The notes: a model not told the origin generated them from the sequence alone. Shown: positions 25,222 through 63,996, counted from the whole stretch's first letter. The stretch is DNA of 63,996 nt, filler included, from Stramenopiles sp. TOSAG23-6 (GCA_900128565.1; 3 parts of 3 records of this genome joined end to end with filler, not necessarily neighbours in it), one strand, 5' to 3'. A program made the numbers and translations.

Positions 25222-27176
25222 TTCCCAATATAATCAAACAGAAATGGCTGGTGGAAAATCTCACTGTTTTCTCATTGAAGAAGTAAATCAACAACAAATG
25301 TCATCAAATTCAAATAATAATAAAAATTCTAAAAATGAGGAGTCAATAACAACATGTATGTTTTATTTTTTTTAATTTCGAATTTTTTTTTTTTTTGTTA
25401 ATAGTAAATTTTGTACCTAAAAATTTTTTTAGAATTTTTTTGAAATATTTTTCCAAAATACATACATATCAAGTTGTGCAGATGAAGCATCAAAATTAAT
25501 CTGGATTCGGACAATTGCTACAGAATGCCTTTTTTATGTATGTTTGGAATTTTGAAATTTTTTTTTATTTTTTTTTTTTCATTTTTTTTATTTTTTATTT
25601 TTTTTTTTCATTTTTTATATTTATTTTTTTCGGTAAAAAAAAAAAAAAAATAGCTGTACAACACATATATTTTTTAATTAAATTGTTTCTTTTGTACATA
25701 TTGTTAAAAAAAAATGCATTACAAAAAAAGGATAATGCCTCTATATTAAAATGCATGTATGTTAATTTTTTTTCAATTTTTTATCTAAATTTTTTTTTGT
25801 AGGAAATTTTGTACCTAACAATTTTTTTTTTTTTTTTTTGAAATATTTTTCCAAAATACATGACCAGTCTGTGCTTAGGACTACTTGCTACGGTTGTGTC
25901 TGGGTTGTACAAGTCACAACCACAATTGTCTATTGCTGCTATGAAAGATCGTAAACAAAGGATTAATCTGTCTCTTGGACGTTTATTACCCACCCTTGAA
26001 ATTTTGAGTGTTCATCCATTAGTAGAAATATCAGAGGCTGCCATGGCTTGTCGTAAAAGTGTTATCACAAATGATGCCGCGTATTGTACAAAAAGTAAAG
26101 AGAATAGTGTTAAGGATATACAATCGACGAATAATACAGTTTCAGAAAGTAAAGGCATTGTAGAAATCACTTCAAATAAGAATAATACAATGAATAAGAA
26201 TAATACAATGAATAAGAATAATATTATAAATTCTGTGTCCAATAAGTCACCCCCAAATCAAGAAAATACAGTAAATGACATGATTTCTGAATATATAAGC
26301 GATATTGGAAGCAATCTAGTACCTATTCGTGCTCATGGTGTTGCCGGTATTGCAAGAATTGTGAAACAATATCCAAAACTGACAGTCGATGATCCAAAAC
26401 AATGTGATATGTTATTGAATATTTTACTTTCTCAAACATTGGATGAAGATTCATATGTGTTTTTAGGTGCAATTAAGGCACTTAAAGAAATGGTAGAAGC
26501 ATCCAAATCAAAGGTTGCCCCAATGATTTGTTGTTTACTGCGTGAATTTTCTGATACCTCACGTTCTCTATGCCAAAGGCTTCGTATTGGAGAAGTTTTA
26601 TCGTGTGCGACAAGACGTCGAGGGGAAGCATTAGCATATTATTCCAAACCTCTCGTCAATGCTTTTATTGCTGGAGCTAGATGTAAATCTTCATTACATA
26701 ATGGCCGTCCAACTCTTCAATCTCATGAGTGTAAGAATATTAGTATAGATGATACTGTAAATAACAATGATGGTGAGGAAACGAAGAGACAGATTACAAA
26801 TACAGCAATGAGGACAAGTTGTATAAGTGCTTTATGTGACATATGTCAAACACTTCCTGCAGGGACTTTGCCTCAGCAGGCAGAAGTAATTGTACTTGCC
26901 CAAGCTGCTCTTCGTTTGGATTCTGATGTAAGAGTGAGACGAGCTGCAGCATTTTTGTTATACCAAGTTGTTTCAAATGTACAAAACGCAGAAGATTTGA
27001 AATCTGTAGCACCTGAAATGAAAGAAGTGTATGAAGGCATCAAAATTGGTACTAATGACGTTGATGCTGTGACAAGATCACATTGTGAAGCAGCTTTGGG
27101 TGAAATTGATAGATCTATCCGAGATTCCTTGTGTTCTGATACATCAAAAAGAGAAGTTCGAATCCGTATTTTATAA
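25222..27176 (+). CDS. TANGO6: TANGO6/RTP1 C-terminal part (5' truncated, multi-exon)
   Basis: LVPIRAHG, DEDSYVFLGAIKAL, RLRIGEVL, RTSCISALCDIC, VRRAAAFLL, DAVTRSHC. The 5' boundary is approximate. Confidence 0.8.
25356..25463 (+). mobile_element. Introner-like GT-AT intron
   Basis: acat|GTATGT..GTACCTAA..CCAAAATACAT|ac; splices ITT-Y-ISSC in frame. Confidence 0.75.
25757..25861 (+). mobile_element. Introner-like GT-AT intron
   Basis: tgcat|GTATGT..TACCTAAC..AAAATACAT|gacc; gives ILKC-M-TSLCLGLL. Confidence 0.8.
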
Positions 27177-27310
27177 AAATAAATTAATGATACTTTTGTT
27201 GCACACATAATAAAAAAGGACTTGGTATATTCCTCGGAGGGCCTCCACCTTGAAGTGAAGCAATAACCTACCAAAACTGCCTTTTTTGTTTTTCCACAAG
27301 CATCGTTTTT

Positions 27311-31141: not shown

Positions 31142-33648
31142 TTACATATTTTTACATTTAAAATTTTTCCATTCTTTTAAAGTTGTCCGAGCAATAGGAG
31201 ATACATTTAAAGTTCGAGCATTTGCATCATCAACTCGTACAACTACGTAATCTCCACGTTTTAAAAACACATTACTACTACTTTTAATAATCTTAGTATT
31301 ATTATTATTATTATTATTTGTAGTATTATTCAAAAACACACTATTATTATCATTTGTAGTATTATTCAAAAATACACTACTACTACTACTACTACTACTA
31401 CTATTAATAATCTTAGAATCATTATTATTATTATTGTTTGTAGTATTATTCAAAAATACACTATTATCATAATTAATAATCTTCTCATCAATATTATTAT
31501 TATTACTATTATTACACTTTTTTGTATATCCATTGAAAAGACTTAACAACAAAGAAGATTCAACAGGAATATTTTCAAATACACAGCGTTTGTTGGTGTC
31601 AGTACGCCCAGTTAATTGCTCGAGCCCAGAAGCACTCACCGCTCTTCTACTATTTCCTTCAACAAGAACTAAATGAAATTGCCCAATTTCAGATAAAGCT
31701 CGTTTAGTAGCTTGTCTGGTAAACACTTCAATAATTTCACGAAGTCGCCTTTGTTTGGTCTCTTCAGGAATATTATCCTTCATTTTATGATAAGCATGCG
31801 TCCGTTCACGTTCGCTATAAGCAAACATGTATTGTTCAAAAATATTTCAAAAACATTGAAATTCATTAAGTACATAATCTCGAAATATCGGGCGTTTCTT
31901 ATAATAAAAAATCTAGTATGAAAAGAAATTATGTAAAAAATTCATGATGAAAACGTATCGAATAAAAATATTTCAAAAAAAAAAAAACATGATGTAAAAA
32001 ATTCATAATGAAAACGTACATATATGCTTGTTCAAAGCCTACAATTTCCATGAGGCTCAATGTGTCAGCATGTTCATCTTCAGTCTCATCACAAAAACCA
32101 GTGATAAAATCAGAACTGAATGCAACACTTTCCTTACCAAATTTTGTACTTGAGGAATTTTCACCAGAGATTATATTTCGTGCATTATCAATCAGAGTAA
32201 GGTACGCCTCACGAGAATACCCGCGTCGCATTCGTCGTAACACAGATGAACTCCCAGATTGAGCAGGCATGTGTAATTGATTACACAAATTATCTCTTTC
32301 TGCATGAAGCTGTAGCAAGGGCTTTGGAAAATCTTTTGGATGAGGAGAAGTATATCGAACTCTCATTTCAGGATCAATTAGAGTAATTGCATCCAGCAAA
32401 TCAGTAAATCGATGGCCATCACCCTGTCTAAGTTTGTATAAATTAGAAAAACCTTCAGCAATCATATACCCTCCCTCAGCTGCCTCAGTCTCAGCATCAC
32501 CTATAGCACGCGCAGCGGCACCACGTTCCGTTTCTTTTGATCGAGTTATACTTTTATGGTTAGGGTTTTTGTATTGCATTGAACTTTTACCAAGTTGATG
32601 CCAATAACTATTTACATTTTGACCAAGTAACGTTACTTCTTTACACCCATTATCCGACAAAGCACGCACTTCATCCAAAATACTCTCAAAAGGACGACTT
32701 CTCTCACGACCACGGGTGAAGGGTACGATGCAATAACTACATGTATTGTGAAAAAGTATATCAACTTCGAAATTAGGGTCATGGTTAGGACAAAACCTTT
32801 GTAGTAGTAGGTACGAAAAAAATTAAAAAGAATGATGAAAACGTACACATGTTATTACAACCTCTCATGATACTACACCATGCAGAGACATTACTCTTTG
32901 AAGTTCGAACTGGTTTGACGTCTGCATATGTTTCATCAAGACTTAGTTGGACGTTCATTGCCCGCTCACCTCCCTGGACAAGCTTGATTAAGTGTGGCAA
33001 GTCTCTGTAAGCATCAGGTCCAGCGATAAGATCAACAATTTTTTCTTCTTCCAATAACTTTGATTTCAAACGTTCAGCCATACACCCAAGAACACCCACT
33101 ACTTGATTTGGTTTCCGACGTGGAGTGCCATGCTGAGCAACTCTCTGTTTTCTCGTCGAGACAGTTTTGTTCTTCAACTCACGAGCAGCGGCCTTGCGCT
33201 CTCCTGTCATATTCCGAAGTCTATTTCTTATTGTATTTTCGGCTCCATCTCGTATAGCACATGTATTTATTAGGACGATATCTGCTGAATTTTCATCAGT
33301 TGTTTTCTTGAAACCTGCATCATCGAGTAAACTGCACACAATTTCAGTGTCAGAAACATTCATTTGACAACCATACGTCTGAATATAATATGTACTACCC
33401 GGTACTTCCAAAAGAACTTGATCAAGAGCATCGGTATTATGATGACCAAATACATGCGCTTTCTGAAGATCTAAGGAAGAAACGGCTTCATTTGAATTTG
33501 CCATAAAGTGCTTGAGAGATAAAACGTCCTCGTCCTTCAACGTTCGCTTTCCTTTCCTAGCCATTTCTGAACCTTTTGATACCACAACTTGTCGTGCTTT
33601 AGAAGAAAATACACGAGATACAAGGTTACATGGATACAACAATCTCAT
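31142..33648 (-). CDS. CDK5RAP1: Mitochondrial tRNA methylthiotransferase (MiaB family), 3 exons
   Basis: [24 protein letters not shown], spliced [38 protein letters not shown] domain. Confidence 0.92.
31827..32019 (-). mobile_element. Diverged GT-AT intron
   Basis: tatat|GTACGT..ACAATACAT|gttt; restores QAY-M-FAYS. Confidence 0.8.
32741..32846 (-). mobile_element. GT-AT intron inside the radical-SAM motif
   Basis: atgt|GTACGT..CCTAAC..ACAATACAT|gtagt; restores CNNM-C-SYC. Confidence 0.88.
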
Positions 33649-34037: not shown

Positions 34038-37000
34038 TTATATCTGCTGTTGTGAATTCGAGAGCATTTGCATCATTAACTGTCGCTGTTGCATTAATCT
34101 CAACTGCAGTTGCTGTTGTTGCTGCTGTTGTTGTTGTTGTTGTGGTTGCTGCTGTTGTTGTTGCTGTTTCTGTTGTAGTTGTTGTTGCTGCTGTGTTTGT
34201 TGTTGTTGTTGTTTTTGTTGCTGCTGTTGCTGTTGTTGCTGTTTTTGTTGCTGTTGTTGTTGTTGTTGCTGCCGTTGTTGCTGTATGTAATGCATCTGCT
34301 GCATCCGTTGCTGAGCAAGTTGATACTGTAACAGTTGCTGCTGTCGTTGCATTAAATAATTATGTTGTTGTTGTTGATATTGTTGTTGCTGTTGTTGGTA
34401 TTGTTGTTGCTGTTTTTGTTGTTGTTGTTGTTGTAGCTGTTTTTGTTGTTGTTGTTGTTGTTGCTGTTGTTGATACTGTTGTCGCTGTTGTTGTTTTTGT
34501 TGTTGTAGTTGTTGTTGTGCGTATTGGTATTGTTGTTGTAGTTGTTGTTGTAGCCGTAATTGATGCTGATATTGTTGTTGTATTTCGTTATTTCCTACTT
34601 GTTTGTTAATATTTCGACTATTTCCTACATGATCGTGAATATTCCGACTATTTCCTTGTGATATCAATGAGTTTCTATCAGTTTGTTGTTGTGATACATT
34701 TTTTTTCTTCCCATTCGATTTTGATGATTTGGACGAAATTCGAGCTTTTTTATAATTCTTTTTCAATTCCTCTTCATTTTTTCTTTTTTTAGTTTTCTTC
34801 ATCCCAGAAAAATCAGTAAACCAAGTTAAACTATTCAAAGTTTCATTGAGCATTTTTGAAGATTTTGTTATCTTTTTAACTTTATTTTTTAAATTATTTG
34901 CTTCGAGAGTTAATGCTTTTGCAGTAAAAGGTTTGACGACCCAATCATGTATTNTGAAAAAAAAANTCGTATAAANTNCGTTAGGTACAAAATTTTCTAT
35001 GAAAAAAATAAATAAATTTGAAATTGATAAAACGTACATGATGTCGTTTCTTGAAAAGATTACCCAAGCGATGAGCATACTTAAAATAAATCGAGTCTCC
35101 TGGATTGTACAATTTAGCATTACGAAAAATCAATTCCATGTCAAGCTTAAATTGTGTATATAATTTTAGGAAAATATTTCAAAACTTTCAACTCAATTAG
35201 GTATAGTACAAAAAAAAATCATTACAGATTGATCAAAAAAAAAAAAGAAAAAAAAATGTTAGGTACAAAATTGTGTACGAAAAAAAAACAAAAAGATAAC
35301 ATACATGACTTCGATATTTTCCATCCATTAGTTTTCGTTGTACTTCAATCAGAGACATAGGTTGTTCAATTATTGTATAATACTGAGGAGCGACTTCTTC
35401 AGTAACTGGGTGTAAAAAAGGCTCTGATATATCAAGTTCATTGATACTTGCCCAAACTGCTGCACAATTTCTTAATTTTTTTTCAGGATTTGTTAAATTT
35501 TTTCGTTTCGGTTTTGTTTTTTTAACGATTTTTTTTTTAGTGATTTTACTTGAATTTTCTTTTACGTATACTTTTTTACTATCATTATCATTCGTTCTCG
35601 GAGTATTGTCATCAAAACATTCTTTTGCTAATTGATCCAATTCAAAATCAAGATTAATGCGAGGTTTTGTATTTTTTCGAAGTTTTGGTTGAAGATGATC
35701 AGGGATCAGAGAATCATCACATTCAAGCCCCTGGCGTTTTTGATTAAATCGCCATTGTCGCAATGCACTTCGTCGTTCTCTTTCTTCCCTTGCTTCTTTT
35801 TCTTCTTCTGTTTTTTGTTCAGCAAAAGCAATCATTAACAACTGCTTCCTTTTACTATACTGGGCCTTACTATTTTCGCGACGTTCCAGGCGAAGCCGAC
35901 GAGATTCTTGTTCTCTGAACTCTTTTTCAGCTTTATCTGCTTTTTCTCGTTCAATTCTCTCCTTTTCCCTCTTTGCCTGTTCTAATTCAGCTTCTCTTTT
36001 TCGACGCTCACGTAACTCTTTTGCCTTCTCCTTATTTAACAACAACTGTGCTTCTCTTCTAAAACGCTCTTCTCGTTCTTTTTTTTCTATTTCTTCTCGC
36101 TGGGCAGTATTTTGTGCAACACGAGATGACCGTTTACGTGGCATTAAACTGATGAGCCGTTGTTTCTCTTCTTTCGCTTTTTGCTTTTCTAAAACTTCCT
36201 TTTGTTCATCCCAATCAGAGATGTATTCTAGGAAAATATTTCGAAAATGTGAAATTCGTCAGGTACAAAGTTTAAAAAAAAATGTTTTTTTTTGTTACGT
36301 ATGAAATTTCGTATGAAAAAAAAGTAAAGAAAATGTAGGCAAAACATTCTAGGTAATATTTCAAAATTTTTTTTGAAAAATTGTTAGGTACAAAATTTCG
36401 TACGAAAAAAAAAATAGAACGCACATCATCGTTTCAAGGTGATCTCGAATCGGTTGCTCCAAGTCCCAAAATTCTTTATTTTTTTTTCTTGATTCGCGTT
36501 CTTCTTTTGCTTTCTTCAATTCCGCTTTTGCTTTCTTCAATTCCGCTTTACTTGCTTTTTTATTTTTTTTATTTTTTTGAGTTTTCTTGTTTTTTTTTGT
36601 TTTTCTCAAAGGTTTTACAGCCTTCTTTGTAAATTGACTTAACAATTCACGAATATTAGCAATACCCGAAGCAACTAATGTCCATTTTGGCTCCGCGAAA
36701 TTTTTCCAGGAAGAGATTCGTTTTGAAGTCTCCTCTATAAAATTACGATGCTCACAAAGTTCACCATCAGAATCAACATCTTCACTTGCAACAAAATTAC
36801 ATTGTTTTTCGTGTTGGTTCACTTCATCTAAAGTTCCTTCAAAAGGACAACCATTTGTCTCGCATTCATATTCAGCCTCTGTTTTGTCTTCACATTTTCG
36901 TTGTACGGTTTGTCTGTAGACACGAAATTCTTTCCAGAAGGATTCAAACCAAAAATATCTAAATCCATTACGATCTACCGCAAATGGTTCGACTCGAAGA

Positions 37001-50228: not shown

Positions 50229-51224
50229 ATATTTCCATGCATTGCGCCAAACTATACTAGTTAATGCAAAAATAGCAGCATCTTTAGGAAGTTGTTTAAT
50301 AATTTTGTCCCAATTTACTTTTGGTAATTTTGCAATGCGTTCAAGACTGTGCCAATATGGATTATAATGCCAATGCGCTGGTTCTGTTTTACTATTATCA
50401 ATATCTTTACTATGAATAGTATTATTATTATGATTATCTTTACTATGATTATTATTACTATTACGAATATCTGTACCAACAACAGAACCAAAATAATAAA
50501 TTTCCAAAGGTTGTAGAGCTCCAGAGGAAGGATTGGCTCGGAGAGAATATTTAACACCTCTTCCTTGACTTTTCCAAGCTGTTAGACCTGCCGCGTCATG
50601 AAGAAGTACACCGAGAGATTCTATGGACCATATCTTGGTTTTAAAAGGTAGTTTTGTAGATATACTCGATTGAGGAAGATCTATACTCATAGAGCCAAGA
50701 ATACGCCTAAATTTGTCAGGTTGATTTTCCCAGTCCATTTGACCGCCAGAAGCATATAAACCAGGTCTCACATGGCACGATTTAGCGTGATAGCGAATCA
50801 CAGTCGCAACAGTAGGTGAAATATCCATTTCTTCTGCAGCTATTAATTGCTCAGATTTCAAGCGTTCTGCATCACGAGACAAAGCCTGAGTCAAACGTGC
50901 CCTTTTCTGCATCTTTACAATATCTTTTTCTTTCGCTTCCCGTACATATCCTGAATCATCAATGGGTACATATGCCATACCTCCTTGGTCAAGTTCAACC
51001 AAATATGGAGCAACTTGATCAGATGACCAGTGAGATTCTCTGTGATGTAAACTTATAATACGAGCAACTTTCCATCCACTACGACCCATATTGACAAGTA
51101 CAGTATCGTCGACATTAAAACGTAAATCTGTACAAGTTCCTTCGCCAACACAAGTTTCGTCTTCCATCTTTGCAGAAATTATTCCAAAAAAACAACAAAT
51201 GAATAAAAATGATATTCTTGGCAT
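50229..51224 (-). CDS. SagB/ThcOx-type nitroreductase-family protein with signal peptide (3' truncated)
   Basis: MDWENQPDKFR, YSLRANPSSGALQPLEIY, YNPYWHSLE, SIVWRNAWKY. Confidence 0.75.
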
Positions 51225-51642
51225 ATTACGAATGTATCGTGATTAGCGTATACTAGAAACAGACAACAACTTGATTTAGCTAATGATGAATAGTACTCAA
51301 ATTCGTGGTAGCTTTTTTTTGTTATTCAATCTGAAATCAATCTGATTTTAAAAATGCAATCTGAAATCTGAAAATGTAATCTGAAATCAATTCAATCATA
51401 ATGTTTTGTGTGCGTTTTGTGTGAGTTTGTGTTCGTGTTTGTCATCTGATGTCAAAACACGACCGTTTTTTTCAGTTAAAATTTCCAAATCTATCACTAC
51501 TATCTACAGTATAATAATAATAATCATCACATAAAATATACACAAAAATTTCTCTAGTTCCTAGGCTATAGCTACCATACTACAAAAGTAAATTTTCAAC
51601 AAAAACATATTTTTCAAACTTTTAATTTATTTTCATCAAAAG

Positions 51643-53687
51643 TTATGGAAGTTGAGAATTACACGGCCATTGAGGACTATTAAGAGGATCAAATGTCTCT
51701 TTGATTGTCCTTGCAGAAGTCCATTTTAAGTTATTCAATATGGTACCTGTCTTATCATTCGTACCTGATTTACGAGAGCCACCAAAGGGTTGTTCCCCAA
51801 CAGCAGCACCTGTACATTTATCATTTACATAAAAGTTACCAGCTGCATTTTGTAGTATGTTTTTTGGAAAAATATTTGAAAAAAAAAAACTTAAATTTGT
51901 TAGGTACAACATTTCGTACGAAAACCAAAAAAAAAAATCGAATTTAAAAAAAAATAAAACATACATAGAGTCTGCAACACGAACTGCTCGTCTGCATTCA
52001 GAAAATATTGAGCCAGTCAGAGCATATTCAGATGTTTCATTACATATCTCAAGTGTTGCTTCATAATCTGCTGCATCATACGTATGTATTTTGGAAAAAT
52101 ATTTAAAAAACAAAATCTAAAAAAAATTGTTAGGTACAAAATTTCGTACGAAACCAAAAAAAAACAAAAAAAAAAACAATTCAAATTTTCAAAAAAATAA
52201 AACATACATATACTGTTAGTACAGGTCCAAATAATTCATCACACATTGTCGAATATTTTGGATTCTTGGTAACAATAATTGTAGGTTCAATGAAAAATCC
52301 CTTTGAATCATCATATTTTCCTCCTACAAGAACTTCACAATCAGATGATGCATTTGCTTCATCAAGATACTTTGCAATATTATCAAACGAGCTACGATCA
52401 ATTACAGCCGTCATGAAACTGCCAAAATCAGTTGAACAACCTACTTTTAGTGTATTTGTAGCTGCAATGAGTTTATCCTTTACCTCATTCTCCCAGGAAT
52501 GTTCTGGAATATATGTATTATGAAGAAATATTTTACATTCAAAAGTAAAAAAAAATGTTAGGTACAAAATTGTCTATGAAAAAAAAAAAAAAATTCGAAA
52601 TTGAAAAAAAATAAAACATACATAATCGACTTGTGGCTGAACATTTTTGGCCTTGATAATCAAATGCTCCACGTGCAGTATGATTCACTACAGAATCCAT
52701 GTCTGCACTCTCATGTACGAAATGAAAGTTTTTACCTCCCGTTTCTCCAACGACACGCGGATATGATTTGTAACTTGCAATATTTTCAGCAACACACTGC
52801 CAAATTGTATGAAACGTACCAGTACTACCCGTGAAATTTACTCCACCAAGATCTTTGTGTGGAATCGCAACATTGCCTACTGTTGATCCACTACAAGGGA
52901 TGAAATTAATTACACCATCAGGAAGTCCAGCTTCCTTGAAAATTTTCATGACAAGCCAACTTTCGTGTACAGCAGTAGATGAAGGTTTAAAAAGGACAGT
53001 ATTTCCCATTAACGCTGGAATTCCAGATAAATTTGCACCAAGAGCACAAAAATTAAATGGAGCAACCGCCAAGACAAAACCTTCTAATGCACGATGTTCA
53101 ATACGATTCCAGTAGTTTTGAGCGCGGTACAAGGAAGGTGGTTGAATACTGTAAATCTCGGATGCATTCTTTACACCAAAGCGGANAAAATCTGAAATCT
53201 CTGAATTATCAATATCAGCTTCACGAGGAGTTTTTCCTGTACCCAACATTATAGAGGCATTTAGTTCTTCACGGTATTTTCCAGCACATAAGTCTGCAAC
53301 TTTAAGAAATACAGCAGCTCGGTCTTCAAACGGCCAATTAGCCCATTCACGTGCCTCTGTGCTCATGGCCGCATCTATTGCTGACTGAATTGTAGCTTCA
53401 TCTGCCAGATGGAATTTACAAATCTCGTGACCATGCTCCGTTGGCATAACCTGACTTACCGTGTTTCCAGTAAAGACATCTTTACCATTGATAATGCATG
53501 GAATTTCCACATGGCTTGCATACAACTTGTCTACTTCTTCTCGAAGCTTGGCACGATCCGAAGAACCAGGAGCGTACGTCTTTGGAATCTCATTTCGAAT
53601 CCAACTGAAATCCCAATTAGCAAAACCTGATACAGCTCGCGTTGGTAGCCTAGCTAAAGTCATCCTACGTACACTAGAGGAAAGCAT
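51643..53687 (-). CDS. ALDH4A1: Delta-1-pyrroline-5-carboxylate dehydrogenase, 4 exons
   Basis: APFNF, FTGSTGTF, GETGGKNFH, GQKCSA, ELFGPVL, AAGNFYVNDKCTGA, QPFGGSRKSGTNDK. Confidence 0.93.
51857..51964 (-). mobile_element. Introner-like GT-AT intron
   Basis: tctat|GTATGT..TACCTAAC..CCAAAAAACAT|acta; gives ADS-I-LQNAAGNFY. Confidence 0.85.
52084..52207 (-). mobile_element. Introner-like GT-AT intron
   Basis: gtatat|GTATGT..AAAATACAT|acgtat; gives GPVLTVY-TYD. Confidence 0.83.
52513..52621 (-). mobile_element. Introner-like GT-AT intron
   Basis: ttat|GTATGT..TACCTAAC..TAATACAT|atatt; gives KCSATSRL-Y-IP. Confidence 0.87.
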
Positions 53688-54004
53688 CTTCTTGTTTTTT
53701 TGAGCCAATCTATTTTTTAACTGTGTTTCTTCTAAAGTTTGTGTGTTTGTTTCTAACTTTTTCGCAAATCAAAATAAAATCAATCGAAATGGACGGTCAA
53801 AATTTGATCATTAATAAATTTGTTATTTAGGGTTAGGGTTCAGGTTCAGATTGAACTTTGTGTTCAAATCAAAATCAAATATAACCATTAATAATAATAT
53901 ATAGTAGTAGATCCTAATGACTAATCATATATACAAAAAACACAAAAAACAATTATTTTTTTAAAAAACTTGTATTCATTTATCTTTCAATTTCTCAAGT
54001 TATC

Positions 54005-54853
54005 TCAATTTAGCTTGAGAAAAAAATGTTTGATTTGTTCATAAGAACAAAAAAATGCAATAGTCCATGGAACATTTCTTGCACAATAAGGAATAAAACC
54101 TTTATAAAATGATCTTGGTCCTTCATGTTTTAATACTTGTTGAATGCAATGTATTGTTCCACGATACATTTTTGGATCTTCGGCAGTCATGCGTCTAGTT
54201 TTAATAAAATCTAATGGAGTTGTTAAAGAAGCCCCGACAAGACCAGAACATATTCCAGAGAAAATATGCAAATCCATTCGATCCGCATATCCTCTTTCAA
54301 TACATGCTGTTTTAACAGCATCATATGTCACCAGTTCAGACGCGTTTGCAACCGCAGCTCTTTGAACAGTTTGACCAACACCTAGGTATAAACCTCTAAA
54401 TCCAGTTTCCTTTATAATAGTTCTAAAAGTATGATATACTCCACGATATTTGTTCATTCCGTGAGACTGATTCTGTAATAATAAACGTACTCGGTCAGTT
54501 GGTGAAGCAATTGCAGATGCTACTGAACCTGAGAACAATCCTGCGGTAACTTTCTGATAGAAAGAGACAACACCATCCTGAGATTTTGAGAGGCTATTCT
54601 TCACAGAGTCATACATACCAACACGCAAAGTTCCATAAATTGCCTGACGCATTAAACTTGGTACTATACCTTTCCAAAATGCAAATGGTCCCTCTTTATT
54701 CAGTATATTCATAATGAGTGAACTAGAAGGAATAGCTCTTCCTATTGTGTTTTGTCTCCTTACTTTAATAACGTCAAATGGGGATGAAACTACGTCGCCT
54801 ACCATGCAAGCCACTCCTCCTGATATAAATTTTAAAGGAATAGATTCTGTCAT
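54005..54853 (-). CDS. Mitochondrial carrier (SLC25, UCP-like)
   Basis: Three Px[D/E]xx[K/R] motifs (PFDVIK, PTDRVR, PLDFIK). Confidence 0.9.
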   Translation of the reverse strand: MTESIPLKFISGGVACMVGDVVSSPFDVIKVRRQNTIGRAIPSSSLIMNILNKEGPFAFWKGIVPSLMRQAIYGTLRVGMYDSVKNSLSKSQDGVVSFYQKVTAGLFSGSVASAIASPTDRVRLLLQNQSHGMNKYRGVYHTFRTIIKETGFRGLYLGVGQTVQRAAVANASELVTYDAVKTACIERGYADRMDLHIFSGICSGLVGASLTTPLDFIKTRRMTAEDPKMYRGTIHCIQQVLKHEGPRSFYKGFIPYCARNVPWTIAFFCSYEQIKHFFLKLN

Positions 54854-55132
54854 TCTTCTCTACAGTCGTTGTAAAGATAAAAAATATAAAATGGTGAAAA
54901 TCGAAGGATGTGCGTTGGAATAAATATTTCTTCGCACCACGATGTACTAGCTAGGATCTTTTTATAGTTTGTAGTACTTGTATATATATAGTAGTATATA
55001 GTACACAAGAAGCTAGTCACGTGACTATGATTTGAAATTTCCAAGGAACTTTCGGTTTCAAATTCAAAATCAACCGTTATTAAAAAAATATATTGGAACA
55101 AACATGTTTTTCTAATTATTTATATTCAATTT

Positions 55133-55703
55133 TCATATATTATGCTGATTACAAGCGTTCACCGGTTCGTATTCAATCAGCGATACATTATTATCAGACG
55201 CAATACTCTTAGGAGCAGCTGGTGTTGATTGGACGTCATCTGGGAATGGTGAAACTTTCCCCCACTTATCTACAGAAAGACGCATAAAATTTCCTACCAT
55301 GTATTTTGGAAAAATATTTAAAAAAAAAATCGTTAAGTACAAAATTTCGTACGAAAAAAAATAAATTCGAAATTAAAAAAAATAAAACGTACATTATCAC
55401 TTTACTATTGCGTAAAACTACAACATTATTTTCTTGGAGAATTTTTATCTGCTTATCCTGTGCTGAAAACAATACACAACCAGACTCATCCCCAATGAGT
55501 ACATCGGCTTCAAGTAAAACCCTTCCATTAGGGAAATTTGTTTCAAAGATTGTTTTGATTTCTATTACTTTTACAACTAGATTTGCACCACACTCATTTG
55601 GATCTAACTGAGATATAGTAAGATATGATGCTCGAGCAAGATTTGCTCTTTCTGGTGAATTTTCAATAGTATTGGCTGTTGCGTCCAAGGTTGAGTGTTG
55701 CAT
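55133..55703 (-). CDS. Small OB-fold nucleic-acid-binding protein, 2 exons
   Basis: NLVVKV..LIGDESGCVLFSA..LRNSKVIM...MRLSVDKWGKV..NNVSLIEYE. Confidence 0.8.
55299..55392 (-). mobile_element. Introner-like GT-AT intron
   Basis: ataat|GTACGT..TACTTAAC..AAAATACAT|ggta; gives SKVI-M-VGNFMRL. Confidence 0.85.
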
Positions 55704-56242
55704 GATAAATACTGTAGATAATAAGGTCTCTTGAGTGAAATAATAATCGCTTATATGGCTATTATTCTTATAATGTCGACACAGAGTACACAATACTGAT
55801 TCAAATATTTTCAATCAATAGAGTGATGACCTCGACTTTTTCATGTTCTGTCACGATAAACAATGCAAATTCCAATGTTGATTTTCAACTCAACAACATC
55901 AATAATGATCGCGCCGGATCTTGGGGGAGAGAGAGAGAAAGAGAGAGTCTCCCGAGAGAGAATCTTGAAGATCATGAACATCACATCACAATCAAATCAT
56001 GATTGCTTCCGATTATTTATTGATCCGTTAATTAGTAACCGTCGCTTGTTATTGTGTGCTTGTATACGTAGGCAAGTATAATATCATAATAGTTCAAGTT
56101 TCAAGTTTGATAATAAATACACCAGGCACCAAAGTTCAATCTATATCTACATTATTTTATGGAGGAAACTCTTTACCAGGCTGCCACCGATATATCTATA
56201 TATATATATCATCAGAAAACTATTTTCATATAGTTAAATAGT

Positions 56243-59152
56243 ATGAGTAGTGAGAGTCACAAAAAAGATTTGAATAAAAAACAGTCGTCGTTGAGGCTTG
56301 AGGCAATTGGTTTCGGTGCCTCAACTAAAAAAATCATCGGTGCCTCGACTACAACTGCACAATCAACACCAGAGTTGTTGAAATATTCAAGTACAAATAC
56401 TTATAATGAAATTCCTATTTCTTCATATGATATTAAAACTTCTCAAAAAAGTGTAGCACCTCTAGCTTCAATTCAACCAGCTTCATCTACTGTAGAAGTG
56501 TTTGCCAAAAATGGAGGTAAATCAGAGGTAGATTCTAAAGGAAAATATGAATATAGAAGAGTTATAAACAGTACTTTTAAAAAGCAAATTCAAGATGAGG
56601 ATAAAAAAGCTTTTCCGCCATCAAGTGTAGTAGATAAAGAGAAAAAAAATAGATCAAAAACGAGTTTTCTAACAAAACAAACTACACAGAATTCAAAAAC
56701 CACTATTGATAGTACACAAAGAGTAAGTAATAAACAAAAAANAAAACAAAATAATAGTACAATAAAGAATGTAGGTGCTTCTTTTACCCGATCTACAAAA
56801 TCTACAAAATCTAAAAAAATAAATACATTACACCCAAACAATAAAAATCAGAAAAAAATGACTATAAAGTCAAGAAGAAAAACTCTCCGTTTTAACACAA
56901 TGTCGCCAACACCAAGTTTGCAAACAAAAAAGGAAAGAGCTCTTCGGTATGCTAATGCAGCGCAGCAGAGGAAACAAATGCGTTCATTCAAACCATTACA
57001 AAATAAAGATCTTGTTGAAAAAACGGCTCCTCTCCTAAAATCGATTTTAGAACCGAAAATTAAAATATCAATTTTAGAACCGAAAACTAAAACTGTAAAA
57101 AAATCTGATGATATTATCAATTTGAAGGCTGTACATCCAGTGAAAAGTAATTATGTCAATGATTCTATCTCACCGATATATAAAAATATAAAACCAAGTA
57201 TGAGAGGCAGGCAAATTTCATTAGTAGAATCGGGGGATATGTATGTTTTATTTTTTTTTTTTTTTTCGGTAAAAAAAAATCGAATTTATTTTTCGTACGA
57301 AATTTTGTACCTAACATTTTTTTTTTGAAATATTTTCCTACAATAAATACGAAAACAAAATAATTTGTTCTTAGATTTAGATATACTGCGTATTCAGCAG
57401 GAGTATGAAGACAAATTAGAATTAGAAGAGTGTCAACTTTCACCTGGTGGTACGTATAAAGCTGGCCCTGATTGGCGCATTAAACAAGAAGGAATTACAA
57501 ATCCGCCGTCTGGAACCTCAAAGGCTGTACGTCTGAGATATCGTACTGTTTCCGCACGAGCTCGAAGTAGACGAGGCAGTTTAAAGGATGAATTTCTGAC
57601 ATTAACAAATCTTGGTCGGGGTGGTTCTAGTGTTGTATTTAAAGTGATACATGTTCCATCTTTACAAGTTGCTGCAATTAAAAGAATTCGAGTTGGTAGC
57701 AAACAAAAATGTGAAGTTGTTCGACATGAACTTCAGGCACTACATGCTAATATTGTCCCATTGGGAACTGTAGTGACACAGTCACCGTGTCCTAATATAG
57801 TAACATTTCATGATGCTTACACAGATATCCAAGAAATGAGTGTCGGTCTTGTGCTACAATATATGGATGCAGGTTCTCTTCAGGATTGTGTAAATGATTT
57901 TCCCACGACCCGAACTTTAAATGGAAAAATAATTCCAAAACGTCCAGAAGATTGGACCGAAAAATCAATTTCTATAGTTTTATATGGTATTTTGAAAGGT
58001 ATTGAATATTTGCATTCACAACAAAAACTTCATCGAGACATCAAACCTTCAAATGTATTGCTATCATCAGCTGGTGAAGTTAAAGTATCTGATTTTGGTA
58101 TTGCGCGTACTATATCTGAAATATCAAGCGGGGTAAATGACTCTATTTATAATCATAATACTAATAATAGTATCGATACCAAAGAAAGCACAAATAGCGA
58201 TACACTTTCGACTACAAAACTAAATCGACCAAAACAATCTATCTTATCTCTTGAATCAAATAGTTTAGATAGTGTCAATTTTCATGGCCAAAAAACATTC
58301 ACTGGGACAATGCTCTATATGTCGCCTGAACGTCTTGAAGGATTGCATTATTCCTACGCATCCGATATTTGGTCAGTAGGACTAATCATTATGGTCATGG
58401 CATTGGGTCAATTACCTTTTCAGGGAGTCGATGGTTTTTGGGGAATGAAAGAAGCTTTGAAGACATCAAATGGCATTCGGAAGATTGCTGATAAAATGAT
58501 GCAAGGAAAACATTCATTATCATCTGATTTATGTGATTTTTGTAAACAATGTTTGCAAATGGATCCAAATAAACGACCATCAGCAAAGCAACTTTTACAA
58601 CATAAGTTCCTATCATCGGCAGCAAAAGCTACTATAGGGCAGCGTAGGAGAACTGTAAAAAAAATGATAGGTAGTAGGATTCCATCCTATGAATACCGTG
58701 TGAGAGAACTTGAACATATAGCGGATGTAATTGCTCAAGAGTATAATGCACGTCTTCTCCGAAGCCGACCATCATCTGCACCAATACTACCAACTGATGA
58801 TAGGAAAAGTAATCGAATCGCTACATTGAAATCATTACGACATATTCCTAAAAAATTTCCAATTATCAAAACTTCAATAAATAACAACAATACAGATCGA
58901 ACGCCTTCGCCGCCTTCTAGACAAAAATACACACAAAAAAATGAGTATAATAGTTATGATGCCGGTGTTGGGGAATCTGGATTACAACGTCCAGCTGCTG
59001 ATGCAATTGCTCGCCTTGCAGTGCAACTTGGTCTTCCGGTTGAAACAGCACAATTAGTATTTATAGATGCTTTTTCAAAAAATATGAAAGATTCGCGTAA
59101 AACTAAATCTTATTCAACAACTATACGCGCAAAAAAGCAAAGTATTCAATAG
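56243..59152 (+). CDS. MAP kinase kinase (STE7-like) with long basic N-terminus, 2 exons
   Basis: LGRGGSSVV, AIKRI, YMDAGSL, HRDIKPSN, SDFG, TFTGTMLYMSPERL, SDIWSVG. Confidence 0.85.
57241..57348 (+). mobile_element. Introner-like GT-AT intron (AAT end)
   Basis: gatat|GTATGT..TACCTAAC..CAATAAAT|acga; joins the two ORFs in frame; downstream AGs are out of frame. Confidence 0.72.
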
Positions 59153-59215
59153 TAACAGAATAATAATGATATTTTAAATATCTATGTTTTGAAAAAATAA
59201 AAAATATAACTCATT

Positions 59216-60139
59216 TTAGCATATTCCAAATACTTCAGACACTTTGGGTGAATCTGGAACTAGATCTTCTACAGATTTTCGTACTATTTCTCCTGAGCTT
59301 AAATGACTCAATACGTCACATCTTAAAAAATCGTATTCAAAAAGAAAAGACCGTGCGTTAGCAAATGGGGCATGAAGAATTCCCCATTGATCTGTTTGTA
59401 TAACTAAAATAGGTTCGATATTTTTTTTTTTTGTAATTAATATATCTTTTATAAGAAGTACAGTAGCCTCAATTGTGTTTCCATATTCCATCGCTTTTAC
59501 ACATAATGATGTTGAAACTGAACCATCCGAAAATAAGACACCAGCTGCATAGTTCACTGGGTGAATTTTATTCCCTATTACGTTTGTCTCTTGAGCAAGG
59601 CGAAATACACTTTCATATAATTTTAACTCGTCACTTGACTTTGAAAATTCACTAAATTTTTTCATGTTTGATGAAAAATCTATACTAAATAAGACTAAAT
59701 TATTACGATTGATACCATTGTGTACTGAAAGACATGGGTAGAGTTGGCCTAATGTCGTTTCACGTATGGTTGATTCAATAATTTTGTCTTCTTTTGTTCC
59801 TGCCATTACAATTCTGACCTTTGAAGTAAAATGTGGTTGGGATGATAAATATTCTCTACAGAGAAGACCAGGAGTCAGACAATCACTCATATCTGCACAT
59901 AAGTAAATACTACCGATTCGTGCAACAGACCTTTCACGAAGCTGAACGGCTGCACTTCGTTCAGCACAAAGACAACTGCCTATGAAACAACATTCCGAGT
60001 TTGTTCCTGTCGAATATTCCCACTGACCGAGGTTGTCTTGATATGTAATAATACTATATACGCGAAATAAACTTTGAGACGGTGGTGTGATTGCGTGCTT
60101 TCTCTTGGCTGCAATAGTCAGCCATTTTATATCATCCAT
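59216..60139 (-). CDS. Two-domain cytidine-deaminase-like protein
   Basis: P.S.FRV, GTNSE, CAERSA, TPGLLCRE; degenerate second domain. Confidence 0.75.
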   Translation of the reverse strand: MDDIKWLTIAAKRKHAITPPSQSLFRVYSIITYQDNLGQWEYSTGTNSECCFIGSCLCAERSAAVQLRERSVARIGSIYLCADMSDCLTPGLLCREYLSSQPHFTSKVRIVMAGTKEDKIIESTIRETTLGQLYPCLSVHNGINRNNLVLFSIDFSSNMKKFSEFSKSSDELKLYESVFRLAQETNVIGNKIHPVNYAAGVLFSDGSVSTSLCVKAMEYGNTIEATVLLIKDILITKKKNIEPILVIQTDQWGILHAPFANARSFLFEYDFLRCDVLSHLSSGEIVRKSVEDLVPDSPKVSEVFGIC

Positions 60140-60427
60140 GCCAAACGAATATTACTCTATCCATGAAGTCGCCATGAAGTCCTGCAAAACAAAACATTTT
60201 CAATTTGAATCAATCATTCAAATTTAAAAAATTTTTCTGACTTTTGAAAAAAAAGTCAATCACGAAATAAATCCCAAAAAAAGGTACGTTTAAAAAAACT
60301 TAACGTTTTTCACTTTGTTCAAAACTACTACAAACTATTAATATCAACAACGACAAACAGAATGAAAGAGAGAATATAATACTATCCTCGCGAATATAAT
60401 GGATAGGCAGTTATAGTTTTGTCAATT

Positions 60428-63082
60428 ATGGACATTGATAGTAAAGATGCAGTGGTCGAAGACAATACAAATTTGGATGAAATTGAACTTGCCCCTTGGA
60501 CAAGTAAAAGTCTCACTGTTCCAATTCCTATTGTACCAATTAACCAAAGAATGTTCCAAGCGGCTTTAGATGGAAATTCTTTGCAATTAGAGCGACTCAT
60601 TGGTCAACATGGGGGAGATCCATACTTGCGTGATCGCAATGGTTGTACATTGGCGCATTATTCTCTCATGCATCGAGATTCATCACGCTGCGTCGCTATT
60701 CTTAGTGAATATGCGAGTGAAATTTTGGAGTTGAGCGATTCTCGAGGGAACCAGCCACTTCATTATGCTGCGTTACGTGGTTGGACTTATTCTACAAAAG
60801 CACTACTAGAGTGCGCTGTGAATCCACTAGTGGCTAATATGAAAGGTCGAACAGCATTGGGTCTTGCTACAGGAACAGGAAATCAACGTTTAATGCAAGC
60901 CCTTTATAAATACTGCAATTATCGCAATGATTGGGTTTCTCTCCCAGGTGAAATTAATGAAGGACCAACCTCAGAAGACCGCAAATTACAACGAGCACTC
61001 CAAGTAAGTTGGGAACAACGCAAATCTTCAAAACAAAAATCAAAAATGTTTTCCAGAAATCAAAAAAACAAGATGAATGATACTAGTAAACCGTACAAAA
61101 AAGTAGCAGACAAAATATTGAGTGAAGGTCCAGCCGTATGTCGATTATTAAGTGTATGGAATGCAGCGATTGGTAGAGCGTCCTCTAGACCTGTGACTCA
61201 GAGACTTAATATCACACAATTGGCTGCACTTCATGATTGGTCCACTGATGATTCGGATGATGTAAGTGATTATGATGATTCCCAAGAAACGGATACAGTA
61301 CAAGAATCAAATAAAAGACAACTGGAATTGCAGAAGGAGCGTATTGCTCAAGAAATAAAGGCATCACAGGCTGAAATTCAGGCGATTGTATCTCGGAATC
61401 AAAAGCATACAAATAAATCAAATAAGGATGATTCCACAGAAACATGGGGTGATGTTTGGTCGCAGTTGAATGATGAAAGATATTGGGAAGGAGGAGGCGA
61501 AAAATCAAATCTACAACAAAAATCAAAAGTAGGAGAAAAAGATGATGCTGTTAGTACAAATATTCCTGATTCGCTTTTAAAAGTCAATCAGATAATATTT
61601 GTAGATTATGAAAATATTTGGTATGAAGCAACAATAATCAAACTTGATAAAGAGGGTGTAACTGTATCCTATACACAAGATAATTCAATAGAAGTAATAC
61701 CTTCGATGGATTTAATTAAAAGAATTTATAGAGAAAGTGACGATAATATTTCAGCAGACAAAAATGAAAACAAAAATAGTAGTAGCACAATGGTGACTGG
61801 TACCGTGGGAGAACAAAATTCCATAGATGTAAAACAGGGAGGTTACCTATATTTAGTCAGGTCACAGGTTAGAAAATGTCAATGGTTATGGTTTAAGATT
61901 GTAAAAAATAAAGACGATGAAGGCCAATCTCTTGTGACATTTAGCAAAAGTGGAAAAAAGAGACAATTTGATCTCCATACTGGGTTTGAATTACTGCTTG
62001 GGCACTCGGCTTTAGTCTTTCGAAATCAGCAGTTTAATGATGATAATTCTACGCTACCAGCACCCGAACTTTGTTTTGCTTTAGCTTTTCACCCAAAAGG
62101 TTCATCAAGTTCTGAAAAATATAAAACTATTGCACTTGCTGCAGATTCTGAAGCTGAAGCTAAAGTATGGATTAAAGAGTTACAAGCCCTTAGCGCTTCT
62201 CTAATTCCAAATACGATAAAGGCCACGAAAAATGAATCCTCAAATACAAATCGAAAGAATGCAAGCCACCATAAACGAAGTCGATTTTTTGTAGGTCCGC
62301 TCCCTGGTGAAGATGGTTACAATCGTCGACGTAGATATCGACCACATGTAATTAAGAGTCGATTGCATGAAAGTAAAAATAGAAAGGAAGAAAAAGCTAT
62401 TCGTAATATTGTTGGTGCAACTCATAAATTACCAAATAACGTTCCACCTCAGCCTCCAACAACTACATTAATAGAAAATGCTCAACGGACAACATTCTTT
62501 CCTCCACCACCTCCACCAAGAGCAACAAAAACTCCCCCACCACCACCACCACCACAAACGATAATACATATACAAAATACTATGGGGCACTCTTCATCTT
62601 CTTCGCCGCCGCCACCACCACCACCGCCTATTTCAAATAAAATACGCCAAACACAAGATTTTATAAAGTTGTGGAAAAGTGCTAGTGGTGGCAAAGAAAT
62701 AGTAACATACTTATCTTCATGGAGAGTCTCACGTTTAATTAATTCTCTGTGTCTCTCAGGATTAGAATATGCTGTACGTCCGTGGTCAAAACCTTCAGCA
62801 TATGACAAAGGTAATTCTATTTTGCCTGCTTGTCTGGTAGGTCAAAAACAACAATTCAATAATGGGCAAAACTCAATCATGTGGTTAATGTGTGAAATTT
62901 CAAACGTTAAAGATCAATTAGATAAAGTTCGTATACGCTGTAAGTCATACAGCATGATGAATTCATTTCATCACGAATCTGTTCATGGTTCAGACGTTGC
63001 ATTTAGAGCATTGATTGAAGGTATTGTTGTACCTCTTATGCTTGAAGAGCAAACAGAAAGAAAAGATGACGAAGATACTTGA
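60428..63082 (+). CDS. Ankyrin, Tudor-like, PH and proline-rich protein
   Basis: GNQPLHYAA ankyrin, WYEATII, KQGGYL..EAKVWIKEL PH, poly-Pro. Confidence 0.7.
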   Translation: MDIDSKDAVVEDNTNLDEIELAPWTSKSLTVPIPIVPINQRMFQAALDGNSLQLERLIGQHGGDPYLRDRNGCTLAHYSLMHRDSSRCVAILSEYASEILELSDSRGNQPLHYAALRGWTYSTKALLECAVNPLVANMKGRTALGLATGTGNQRLMQALYKYCNYRNDWVSLPGEINEGPTSEDRKLQRALQVSWEQRKSSKQKSKMFSRNQKNKMNDTSKPYKKVADKILSEGPAVCRLLSVWNAAIGRASSRPVTQRLNITQLAALHDWSTDDSDDVSDYDDSQETDTVQESNKRQLELQKERIAQEIKASQAEIQAIVSRNQKHTNKSNKDDSTETWGDVWSQLNDERYWEGGGEKSNLQQKSKVGEKDDAVSTNIPDSLLKVNQIIFVDYENIWYEATIIKLDKEGVTVSYTQDNSIEVIPSMDLIKRIYRESDDNISADKNENKNSSSTMVTGTVGEQNSIDVKQGGYLYLVRSQVRKCQWLWFKIVKNKDDEGQSLVTFSKSGKKRQFDLHTGFELLLGHSALVFRNQQFNDDNSTLPAPELCFALAFHPKGSSSSEKYKTIALAADSEAEAKVWIKELQALSASLIPNTIKATKNESSNTNRKNASHHKRSRFFVGPLPGEDGYNRRRRYRPHVIKSRLHESKNRKEEKAIRNIVGATHKLPNNVPPQPPTTTLIENAQRTTFFPPPPPPRATKTPPPPPPPQTIIHIQNTMGHSSSSSPPPPPPPPISNKIRQTQDFIKLWKSASGGKEIVTYLSSWRVSRLINSLCLSGLEYAVRPWSKPSAYDKGNSILPACLVGQKQQFNNGQNSIMWLMCEISNVKDQLDKVRIRCKSYSMMNSFHHESVHGSDVAFRALIEGIVVPLMLEEQTERKDDEDT

Positions 63083-63172
63083 TAGAAAGTATTGAACATA
63101 TATAAAATGTTTCTATATTTTATACTATTAGATTTATTTACAAATTTCAAATTTACAACACTACAATTAGAA

Positions 63173-63941
63173 TTATGCCCTTCTTGATCTACGCAATGGC
63201 GTACTTCGTTTCAAGCCTTTTTTCTTTGTTATCTTTGTAGTTTTCTTTGACTTCTTGTCATGTGTATCATCTATTATATCCCAAGTAAATTTTTTGGGGT
63301 CAATTATTTTAGCTTTACATACCATCACTGAAGACACGGCATGGCAGTATTGAGCTTCGACACCAATTTCACCACCATCCACTAACTTCCAACGGATACG
63401 ACCACCACGTTGCCCTCGTTTATCGAAATATCCAACAGGTTTTAAAGGTAGTAGTTGACAATGTGGTGGATTACATGCAACATCGTACCTCACAACAAAG
63501 AAATATTTTGGACTAGAGTTACTCGTCATTCGACTCTCAAATGTACTATCACATTGAGATCTAGGCGATAATGTATGTCGCCATGTTACTGGTTTACCTT
63601 GAAGTCTTGCGCGTGTTAGTCGTAGTGGTGCTCCAAGTTGAGCTTTTGAATCAATTCTTACCACTTTATTTAAAAGACGTAACAGCTCCGTTTCTTTCGA
63701 CTTTAACAACGTATCATTTATTTTGCCTGTTTTACTTTTAACTGTATCACCTTTGAAATTGTATTTTTTCTTCAGATTATGTTTTTTGACATACACTTTT
63801 AATGATGTATGCTTCTCTAACTTGCCTCTTTTTCTATCAAGAATTTCTTTATTTCTTTTCGTACTAGTAGTTGTGCGAGTAGTTGACCGAGAGGAGCGAG
63901 TTGTTCGTTTTGACTTTTGTTCCATTTCACTTTTAGAACTT
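63173..63941 (-). CDS. Last exon of a basic hypothetical protein
   Basis: Open frame extending up to an introner acceptor at 63942. Confidence 0.55.
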
Positions 63942-63996
63942 ATGTATTTTGGAAAAATATTTCAAAAAAAAATTCGTTAGGTACAAAATTTCGTAC
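63942..63996 (-). mobile_element. 3' half of introner, truncated at window/contig end
   Basis: GTACGAAATTTTGTACCTAAC..CCAAAATACAT|. Confidence 0.8.

Follow-up and report, generated by a model that had tools for sequence, protein, structure and literature searches.

How can eight protein-coding genes be read through when they are interrupted by inserts that begin like ordinary introns and end in AT, not AG? This is the question raised by the 63,996-nucleotide stretch of DNA analyzed here (hereafter "the window"), which is made up of three contigs (A, 1-25030; B, 25131-50045; C, 50146 to the end). A preliminary description of the window had listed 16 complete inserts in eight genes, each oriented with its host gene, and had proposed that their 3' splice site is AT. 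Our analysis found all 16 inserts at the coordinates given there and in the sense of the host gene, with three on the plus strand and 13 on the minus strand. The inserts are most likely spliceosomal introns of the U2 type; as a whole, the reading in which they form one introner-like multi-copy family spliced as GU..AU has, in our estimate, a probability of about three in four. The AT 3' splice site is well supported for this intron family. The 16 inserts are as follows:

25356-25463, plus strand: intron 1 of an RTP1-like gene, GTATGT..ACAT, 108 nt, phase 1; evidence from open reading frame (ORF) continuity only.
25757-25861, plus strand: intron of the RTP1-like gene, GTATGT..ACAT, 105 nt; evidence from ORF continuity only.
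31827-32019, minus strand: intron of a MiaB/CDK5RAP1-like gene, GTACGT..ACAT, 193 nt; the spliced gene is a 736-aa ORF.
32741-32846, minus strand: intron within the radical-SAM CxxxCxxC motif of the MiaB/CDK5RAP1-like gene, GTACGT..ACAT, 106 nt; preceded by an exon with GT, not AT, at its end.
34947-35037, minus strand: intron of a bromodomain gene, GTACGT..ACAT, 91 nt; contains four single N.
35158-35304, minus strand: intron within the bromodomain, GTATGT..TATAT, 147 nt; has an internal second partial copy.
36221-36424, minus strand: intron of the bromodomain gene, GTGCGT..ACAT, 204 nt; its 3' module is present in two tandem copies.
43448-43548, minus strand: intron of an 832-aa gene, GTATGT..ACAT, 101 nt.
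45134-45223, minus strand: intron of the same 832-aa gene, GTATGT..ACAT, 90 nt; the upstream exon ends in TT, not AT.
47487-47604, minus strand: intron of a carnosine N-methyltransferase gene, GTAAGT..ATAT, 118 nt; diverged copy.
47750-47838, minus strand: intron of the carnosine N-methyltransferase gene, GTATGT..TATAT, 89 nt; diverged copy.
51857-51964, minus strand: intron of a P5C dehydrogenase (P5CDH) gene, GTATGT..AACAT, 108 nt; evidence from an RNA contig and homologue colinearity.
52084-52207, minus strand: intron of the P5CDH gene, GTATGT..ACAT, 124 nt; evidence from an exact RNA joint and homologue colinearity.
52513-52621, minus strand: intron of the P5CDH gene, GTATGT..ACAT, 109 nt; evidence from exact RNA joints and homologue colinearity.
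55299-55392, minus strand: intron of an SSB-like OB-fold gene, GTACGT..ACAT, 94 nt.
57241-57348, plus strand: intron between two ORFs that together encode a 936-aa kinase protein, GTATGT..AAAT, 108 nt.

The termini and internal signals described for these inserts were all recovered. GT at the start and AT at the end are found in 16/16, with the 5' hexamers GTATGT (10), GTACGT (4), GTAAGT (1) and GTGCGT (1) and the last triplets CAT (12), TAT (3) and AAT (1); a terminal YAG is absent, as 0/16 inserts end in AG. In 15/16 inserts, the distance from a branch-like YTRAY motif (mostly GTACCTAAC) to the 3' end is 33-46 nt; the 16th carries the branch variant GTACCTAAA (CTAAA). At the 5' end, positions +5G, +6T and +7T are invariant in all 16 inserts, as are -9A, -4A, -2A and -1T at the 3' end, where the consensus reads C-A-N-A-A-T-A-Y-A-T. 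The conservation extends into the upstream exon, with T at -1 in 16/16 and A at -2 in 14/16, so that 14 of the 16 upstream exons end in AT (P = 4e-13 at the window AT frequency of 0.094). The triplet YAT stands directly upstream of 12/16 inserts and forms the terminal triplet of 15/16.

Removal of the inserts restores the coding sequence, as had been claimed. Their lengths range from 89 to 204 nt and are a multiple of three in only 5/16, and an automated check put 15 of the 16 junctions within one long ORF per gene; the remaining junction (25356-25463) is in frame if the ORF starts at the ATG at 25244 and not at 25245. The intron phases 0/1/2 are distributed as 5/4/7, as expected for unselected insertion sites. 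Conserved motifs or domains are restored at seven of the 16 junctions, namely three in P5CDH and one each in CARNMT1 (the carnosine N-methyltransferase), the radical-SAM motif, the bromodomain and the OB fold. All three P5CDH junctions are colinear with nine homologues. Across 35158-35304 the Pfam bromodomain profile stops at position 53 in the upstream exon and restarts at position 55 in the downstream exon; likewise, across 55299-55392 the OB profile runs to position 78 in the upstream exon and continues from position 83 in the downstream exon. In CARNMT1, GT..AT splicing of 47750-47838 restores a block of 17 residues that is gapless against ten relatives and has a conserved LKPGG core, while the same splicing of 32741-32846 yields the radical-SAM motif CNNMCSYC.

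Transcript data add direct evidence at three sites. Of the words sampled from 43400-53399, 5-16% occur in twelve marine metatranscriptome runs that belong to four studies, and the contigs of four runs were compared with 50159-63996, a region with five complete inserts. Three of these (all in P5CDH) are bridged by contigs that join the exons, and no contig bridges 55299-55392 or 57241-57348. The exact joint 52512->52622 occurs in run X2 (polyA RNA, side 255) and in run X8 (cDNA, side 101), which belong to different studies, and the exact joint 52083->52208 occurs in X8 (side 113), each with a 2-nt ambiguity. At the third site, the same X8 contig (contig 24) passes from 51859 to 51971 with three letters between, which amounts to a net removal of 108 nt with the joint inside a six-letter stretch. 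Read on the gene strand, these joints permit only GT..AT, TG..CA or AT..AC and leave no room for AG. For 3/16 inserts, contigs from the RNA libraries of two studies thus lack the insert, at boundaries that cannot be AG. At the MiaB-like junction, the best match of a transcript search was 56% identical, which gives no same-species read-out of the register.

Run X1, labelled as RNA, contributed 1,167 contigs placed on 50159-63996, over a thousand of them of intron-family sequence. The summed contig depth over the family reaches ~13,000 versus ~1-7 on the listed exon contigs; this depth is not a copy count, as it sums all placed contigs, those of other organisms included, and it points to a very high copy number of the family. 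The excess of intron-family sequence in X1 could represent excised introns, unspliced RNA or DNA carry-over.

A point absent from the preliminary description is that the 16 inserts are one repeat family and not independent introns. Common to them are a 5' site of yeast-like form (GTAYGTT), the branch motif TGTACCTAAC at a distance of 33-46 nt from the end, and an extended 3' end, AAUAYAU. The core copies are 85-97% alike, and three copies have diverged to ~70%. The 10-mer TGTACCTAAC occurs 19 times in the window with at most one mismatch versus 3.2 +/- 1.9 expected, and 0/100 shuffles reach 19. When a profile built on the 3'-terminal 62 nt of the 16 inserts was searched against the window with nhmmer, 24 rows were returned: the 16 inserts (which match by construction), two internal second copies, three further partial copies and three noise rows with E > 0.1. 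The three partial copies (E 4.7e-13 to 7.8e-6) are all co-oriented with ORFs. Altogether, the family comprises 16 complete and three partial copies in 38.8 kb, with a possible fourth partial copy at the start of contig B. The internal second copies are branch-to-3' modules in the two longest inserts of the bromodomain gene, matching 35252-35280 (within 35158-35304) and 36355-36405 (within 36221-36424), which suggests tandem duplication or nested insertion within introns. Contigs B and C start or end within family copies, and two breaks of the window fall inside copies, as would be expected if the assembler broke at a repeat. The exact 22-mer of the intron 3' end had 0 matches in metagenome contigs, viral contigs and prokaryote genome contigs. 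The further and less certain copies are:

49992-50045, minus strand: further family copy, 3' part, cut by the end of contig B (nhmmer E 4.7e-13).
50147-50193, minus strand: further family copy, incomplete, where contig C starts (nhmmer E 7.8e-6).
63942-63995, minus strand: further family copy, 3' part, at the end of the window (nhmmer E 9.4e-13).
25538-25670, plus strand: probable 17th, degenerate insert in the RTP1-like gene, with a clear 5' end tat|GTATGTTTGG; 25670 is one in-frame AT-ending candidate, with the frame open throughout.
25131-25231, plus strand: uncertain candidate for the 3' part of a family copy, located where contig B begins and within the 5' leader of the RTP1-like gene, with TGTACCCAAC at 25203-25212 followed by a T-run and CCCAATAT.

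Which letters are actually cut is best answered by the GT..AT register, the only one that is invariant in all 16 inserts, as the preliminary description had stated. We favour it because of this invariance, because GTAYGT is a standard 5' splice site, and because of the residue that it places at 32741-32846. A shift by -1 gives TG at the start and CA, TA or AA at the end, and a shift by -2 gives AT (14/16) at the start and AC (12/16) at the end. The latter corresponds to the same introns cut 2 nt further upstream at both ends, as AT..AC, a pair of termini that is known to be chemically compatible with spliceosomes although it departs from GT-AG. It can be read in 12/16 inserts with an identical mRNA (14/16 have the upstream AT, 12/16 end in ACAT), and the RNA joints show precisely that 2-nt ambiguity. 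However, neither end would be invariant, and the 5' end would become ATGTATGT, which is not a standard 5' splice site. At 32741-32846, moreover, the -2 register would yield CNNIC; among the 74 motif-containing sequences of 120 homologues fetched, the residue before the second cysteine is Met in 70/74 and Ile in 0/74. We therefore regard AT..AC cutting as unlikely. That the inserts are ordinary GT-AG introns with misplaced boundaries, as the public coding sequence (CDS) P0142 of the methyltransferase assumes, is hardly credible. Two inserts, 32741-32846 and 47487-47604, do have a GT..AG reading of the same length by a +4 shift, several others have frame-keeping pairs within 15 nt, and P0142 uses such pairs. 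In 14/16, however, there is no GT..AG register of the same length, and the RNA joints at two sites exclude AG. Forcing GT-AG in P0142 translates 36 nt of intron as 12 residues and drops a catalytic-domain block of 11 residues whose LKPGG core is conserved in relatives. GT-AG splicing is thus refuted for the P5CDH and CARNMT1 sites and is left only at 32741-32846 and 47487-47604. There, the +4 reading replaces Ser by Thr (CNNMCTYC) and Val by Ile, respectively, the latter being the version used in P0142; these two inserts may still be GT..AG, because both alternative residues occur in homologues.

Processing by the minor (U12-type) spliceosome or a derivative of it would tolerate varied 3' termini, and GT-AT is a rare U12 subtype, yet we consider it improbable for this family. 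The combination of GTAYGT and CTAAC is typical of intron-poor U2-type systems, and the distance of 33-46 nt between branch motif and 3' end contrasts with ~10-20 nt for U12-type introns. In favour of a minor-type origin, GTATGTTTT matches the U12 5' consensus RTATCCTTT at 7/9 positions and TACCTAAC matches the consensus TCCTTAAC at 6/8; on the other hand, CC at +5/+6 is found in 0/16 inserts. GT-AT is listed among the non-canonical termini of minor introns, and Blastocystis has hundreds of minor introns (bioRxiv 10.1101/2022.09.24.509304). A different kind of explanation places the difference in the DNA, by programmed elimination or by presence/absence polymorphism. It would fit the relatives that lack the inserts, the intron-less contigs that differ by ~1% from the window and the possibility that run X8 contains DNA. 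Against it stand the sense orientation of all 16 inserts in eight genes, each with a 5' splice site and a branch motif, the intact exon ORFs in spite of only 5/16 lengths being divisible by three, and the origin of one intron-less contig from a polyA RNA library (X2). We know of no DNA elimination in stramenopiles, and removal or absence at the DNA level appears very unlikely.

Several observations weigh against GU..AU splicing of a single intron family as we propose it, or limit how far the evidence for it reaches. The boundary is ambiguous by 2 nt in 14/16 inserts, since 14 of the upstream exons end in AT, and the two inserts just mentioned also allow GT..AG. RNA support covers 3/16 inserts and comes from assembled contigs, not raw reads; the intron-less contigs, being ~1% different from the window, could be transcripts of intron-less alleles, and run X8 is flagged as "probably DNA". 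All 16 inserts share descent, so that their invariant ends reflect in part one ancestor and not 16 independent tests. Contig A (25 kb) holds 0/19 family copies (P = 7.8e-5 under uniform density), which possibly reflects local spread or differences between regions, or else a pooled assembly in which contig A stems from a close relative. Finally, the terminal inverted repeat is at chance level, with 6.0/12 matches compared to 5.86 +/- 0.26 in shuffles.

The preliminary description had also held that the window contains no required GT-AG intron. This stands, with the qualifications that the inserts at 32741-32846 and 47487-47604 can be read as GT..AG by the +4 shift and that the RTP1-like gene requires a further, degenerate insert starting at 25538. 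Candidate AG acceptors are nonetheless present. In 52084-52207, a T-run followed by AG, 13 nt past the branch A, is bypassed in the RNA contigs. In 36221-36424, a CCTAG lies 7 nt before the end and its use would shift the frame, and in 32741-32846, an AG lies 24 nt before the end and its use would add eight residues to CxxxCxxC; judged by frame and motif, these two well-placed AGs appear to be skipped. A YAT is also present 15 nt before the end of nearly all copies and is unused in P5CDH; therefore, the acceptor needs more than "YAT" and is plausibly defined by the extended AAUAYAU context or by distance.

The mechanism that we propose starts from copies that are complete in their signals: each has a strong 5' splice site (GTAYGTT) and a branch motif of yeast-like form, TGTACCTAAC, together with a spacer rich in U and the extended signal A-N-A-A-U-A-Y-A-U at the 3' end. 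A copy nearly always sits directly after an exonic AT and ends in the same dinucleotide, so that its removal restores the coding sequence exactly. We infer that the major spliceosome carries out this removal, cutting before the G of GTAYGT and after the U of the last YAU, which makes the 3' site AU and not AG, and that 3' site choice in this lineage has moved from YAG to YAU. An inserted element that duplicates or targets AT would be expected to leave an AT both before the intron and at its end.

The comparison with relatives indicates how the inserts were acquired. Relatives' P5CDH proteins (64-83% identity) are full length and gapless at the three sites in nine aligned homologues. In a related contig (L001, GC content 0.51), P5CDH is an uninterrupted 580-aa ORF with all three sites empty, and the three sites are also empty in a second related contig (L002, GC content 0.44, P5CDH protein 73% identical). 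Because the relatives' P5CDH genes lack the inserts at the three sites compared, the inserts appear to be recent, lineage-specific gains. L002 carries a GTACGT..CAG intron of canonical form (L002:1142-1269, 128 nt) in P5CDH at a position other than those of the window's three inserts, and on this sequence evidence the related lineage would still splice GT-AG.

As to the mode of spread, AT precedes 14/16 copies and ends 16/16, which resembles a target site duplication of only 2 nt, or else a preference for this target. The model is weak where it invokes a transposon, because no terminal inverted repeat beyond chance was found. Structure or end-pairing of the RNA was not significant in the 12/16 introns that were folded (z-scores -1.09 to +1.37); pairing of the intron ends of the euglenid type amounts to a 4-bp GUAU/AUAC closing helix in 4/12 folded introns. 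The family may spread as a DNA element that makes a very short duplication, by insertion into A^T that duplicates nothing, or by reverse splicing.

A genome-wide occurrence of the class and an altered spliceosome in its host are plausible extrapolations from the window. In the most far-reaching version, the lineage would have replaced the 3' rule YAG by YAU outright, with nearly all introns GU-AU, thousands of family copies and AGs ignored, and would have done so independently of the larvacean Fritillaria; we put this forward tentatively, as a possibility that we rather doubt. In that version, the change would concern second-step recognition of the 3' site (Prp8, Slu7, Prp18 or the RNA core) or U2AF1, with the 5' and branch sites still fully canonical.

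The host can be placed by its proteins. The carnosine N-methyltransferase exon matches an entry labelled GSMAST32... in 373/399 aligned columns, and all but one of the mismatches are accounted for by a gap of 14 residues in exon 1 and by the two insert junctions; among named entries, oomycetes, Blastocystis and other stramenopiles come next. We take the GSMAST32... label to denote a marine stramenopile of the MAST-3 type. Judged by these matches, the host is a stramenopile whose nearest named entry bears a MAST-3-like label. A larvacean or tunicate origin, suspected from the Fritillaria-like YAY pattern, was dropped, as the nearest named proteins are those of stramenopiles. Contigs A, B and C are probably from a single organism, because their codon usage correlates at r = 0.93-0.97. 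The window is AT-rich (27-42% GC per 2 kb) and gene-dense with long unbroken ORFs. Its Pfam matches are ordinary eukaryotic genes, e.g. CFAP61, a SUN-domain protein, ankyrin/RING proteins and the MiaB/CDK5RAP1-like radical-SAM enzyme, and further the bromodomain protein, carnosine N-methyltransferase, P5C dehydrogenase, a mitochondrial carrier, the SSB-like OB fold and the kinase; Rfam and tRNA scans of the window gave no match. The contigs are separated by two linkers:

25031-25130, no strand: artificial contig linker (N44, TTAATTAATTAA, N44) with stops in six frames.
50046-50145, no strand: artificial contig linker (N44, TTAATTAATTAA, N44) with stops in six frames.

Three further observations concern the assembly and its proteins. 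At the end of contig A, a unit of ~207 nt is present in two tandem copies (24616-25030) in an aspartyl-protease/EGF gene, beside a gap of 120 N (24496-24615), and is probably an assembly artefact. In a DOMON/ferric-reductase gene, the frame changes within ~10 nt at 19850-19862 (ORFs 19155-19862 and 19853-21754) while the DOMON domain runs across, which is likely a 1-nt assembly error and not an intron. The C-terminal part of the MiaB-like protein (31142-31826, minus strand) contains long Asn- and Ser-rich low-complexity repeats (NNNNN, SSSSSSSS and the repeated unit SVFLNNTT).

Among known systems, the "yeast-like" U2-type introns of intron-poor genomes read GTATGT...TACTAAC...YAG. The family shares with them the 5' hexamer, the CTAAC-type branch, the short length and the setting in a gene-dense, intron-poor genome, whereas its last base is U, not G, and well-placed upstream AGs are apparently skipped. 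Introners are known from Micromonas, Aureococcus, fungi, dinoflagellates and many aquatic protists (PMC11282704, PMC12130899, bioRxiv 10.1101/2022.06.06.494994). Compared to these accounts, the present family is similar in consisting of near-identical short introns in unrelated genes of an aquatic protist, with sites empty in relatives, co-orientation and its own splice signals; unlike introners, it shows no terminal inverted repeat and no autonomous partner in the window. The introners of Amoebophrya (PMC7789003), according to a review (PMC11282704), have highly variable termini, terminal inverted repeats and target site duplications of 3-5 nt. Both cases concern marine protists with repeat-derived introns outside the GT-AG rule, but here the 5' site is canonical, a branch motif is present and the termini are uniformly GT..AT. 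GT-AT is also described as a rare subtype of U12-type introns, and Blastocystis as having all four minor small nuclear RNAs (snRNAs) (bioRxiv 10.1101/2022.09.24.509304). The terminal dinucleotides are identical, but GT-AT U12 introns are isolated and conserved with U12 signals, whereas the family is high-copy with a U2-like 5' site and a distant branch.

The author of the preliminary description knew of no systematic GT-AT class. The closest precedent is found in Fritillaria, where a systematic class of non-AG introns ending in AT is already reported (PMC13326754). According to this study (Soo et al. 2026), AT leads all other 3' termini in both genomes, with 44% in F. pellucida and 34% in F. 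borealis. A YAY triplet is placed directly upstream of the 5' site and also closes the intron, the introns are confined to the lineage and attributed to inserted elements, and duplicated U2AF subunits and altered N6-methyladenosine (m6A) of snRNAs are proposed as adaptations. The AT end, the YAY pattern (here YAT, 12/16 upstream and 15/16 terminal) and the restoration of the target upon removal are common to both systems. Unlike in Fritillaria, where the main F. borealis classes are AG/AC and AG/AT, the start is GT in 16/16 and always GTRNGT-like; moreover, the host is a stramenopile, the CTAAC branch motif is strong, and the introns form one uniform family with no inverted terminal repeats. 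GT-AT introns in a stramenopile were not reported in the literature searched. In the main-text parts covered of PMC5778133, PMC8163842, PMC12614181, PMC12130899 and bioRxiv 10.64898/2026.04.17.719054, AT-ending introns of marine stramenopiles are not described; their supplements, possibly with intron statistics, lay outside the scope. What is new here is thus the uniform GT-AT family in a stramenopile, while frequent 3'-AT introns were already known from Fritillaria.

These findings have consequences for annotation. A gene finder that insists on GT-AG will annotate this lineage wrongly, as the single public CDS examined (P0142) illustrates, and reference proteomes used in plankton 'omics may hold similar errors at other such introns. 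P0142 additionally omits an in-frame GT..AG segment of 42 nt (48396-48437, minus strand), which encodes 14 residues of methyltransferase exon 1; the window gives no reason to remove this segment, and its prediction as an intron may be spurious. Surveys of introners limited to AG or AC 3' ends would miss the family; the curation step of Gozashti et al. (PMC12130899) accepts AG and AC 3' sites only, and an AT-ending family would count as "unfamiliar" there.

For the biology of splicing, the intron-terminal G is among the most conserved nucleotides of eukaryotic genes. If our reading is true, a free-living, abundant marine protist combines a textbook 5' and branch site with a U at the intron end, so that the choice of the 3' site would be the one variable that differs. 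As a natural experiment, this would be cleaner than Fritillaria, whose introns vary at either end. The family would, moreover, represent a second, independent origin of AT-ending, insertion-derived introns, and would support the idea that waves of intron-generating elements drive spliceosomes to relax or shift their rules.

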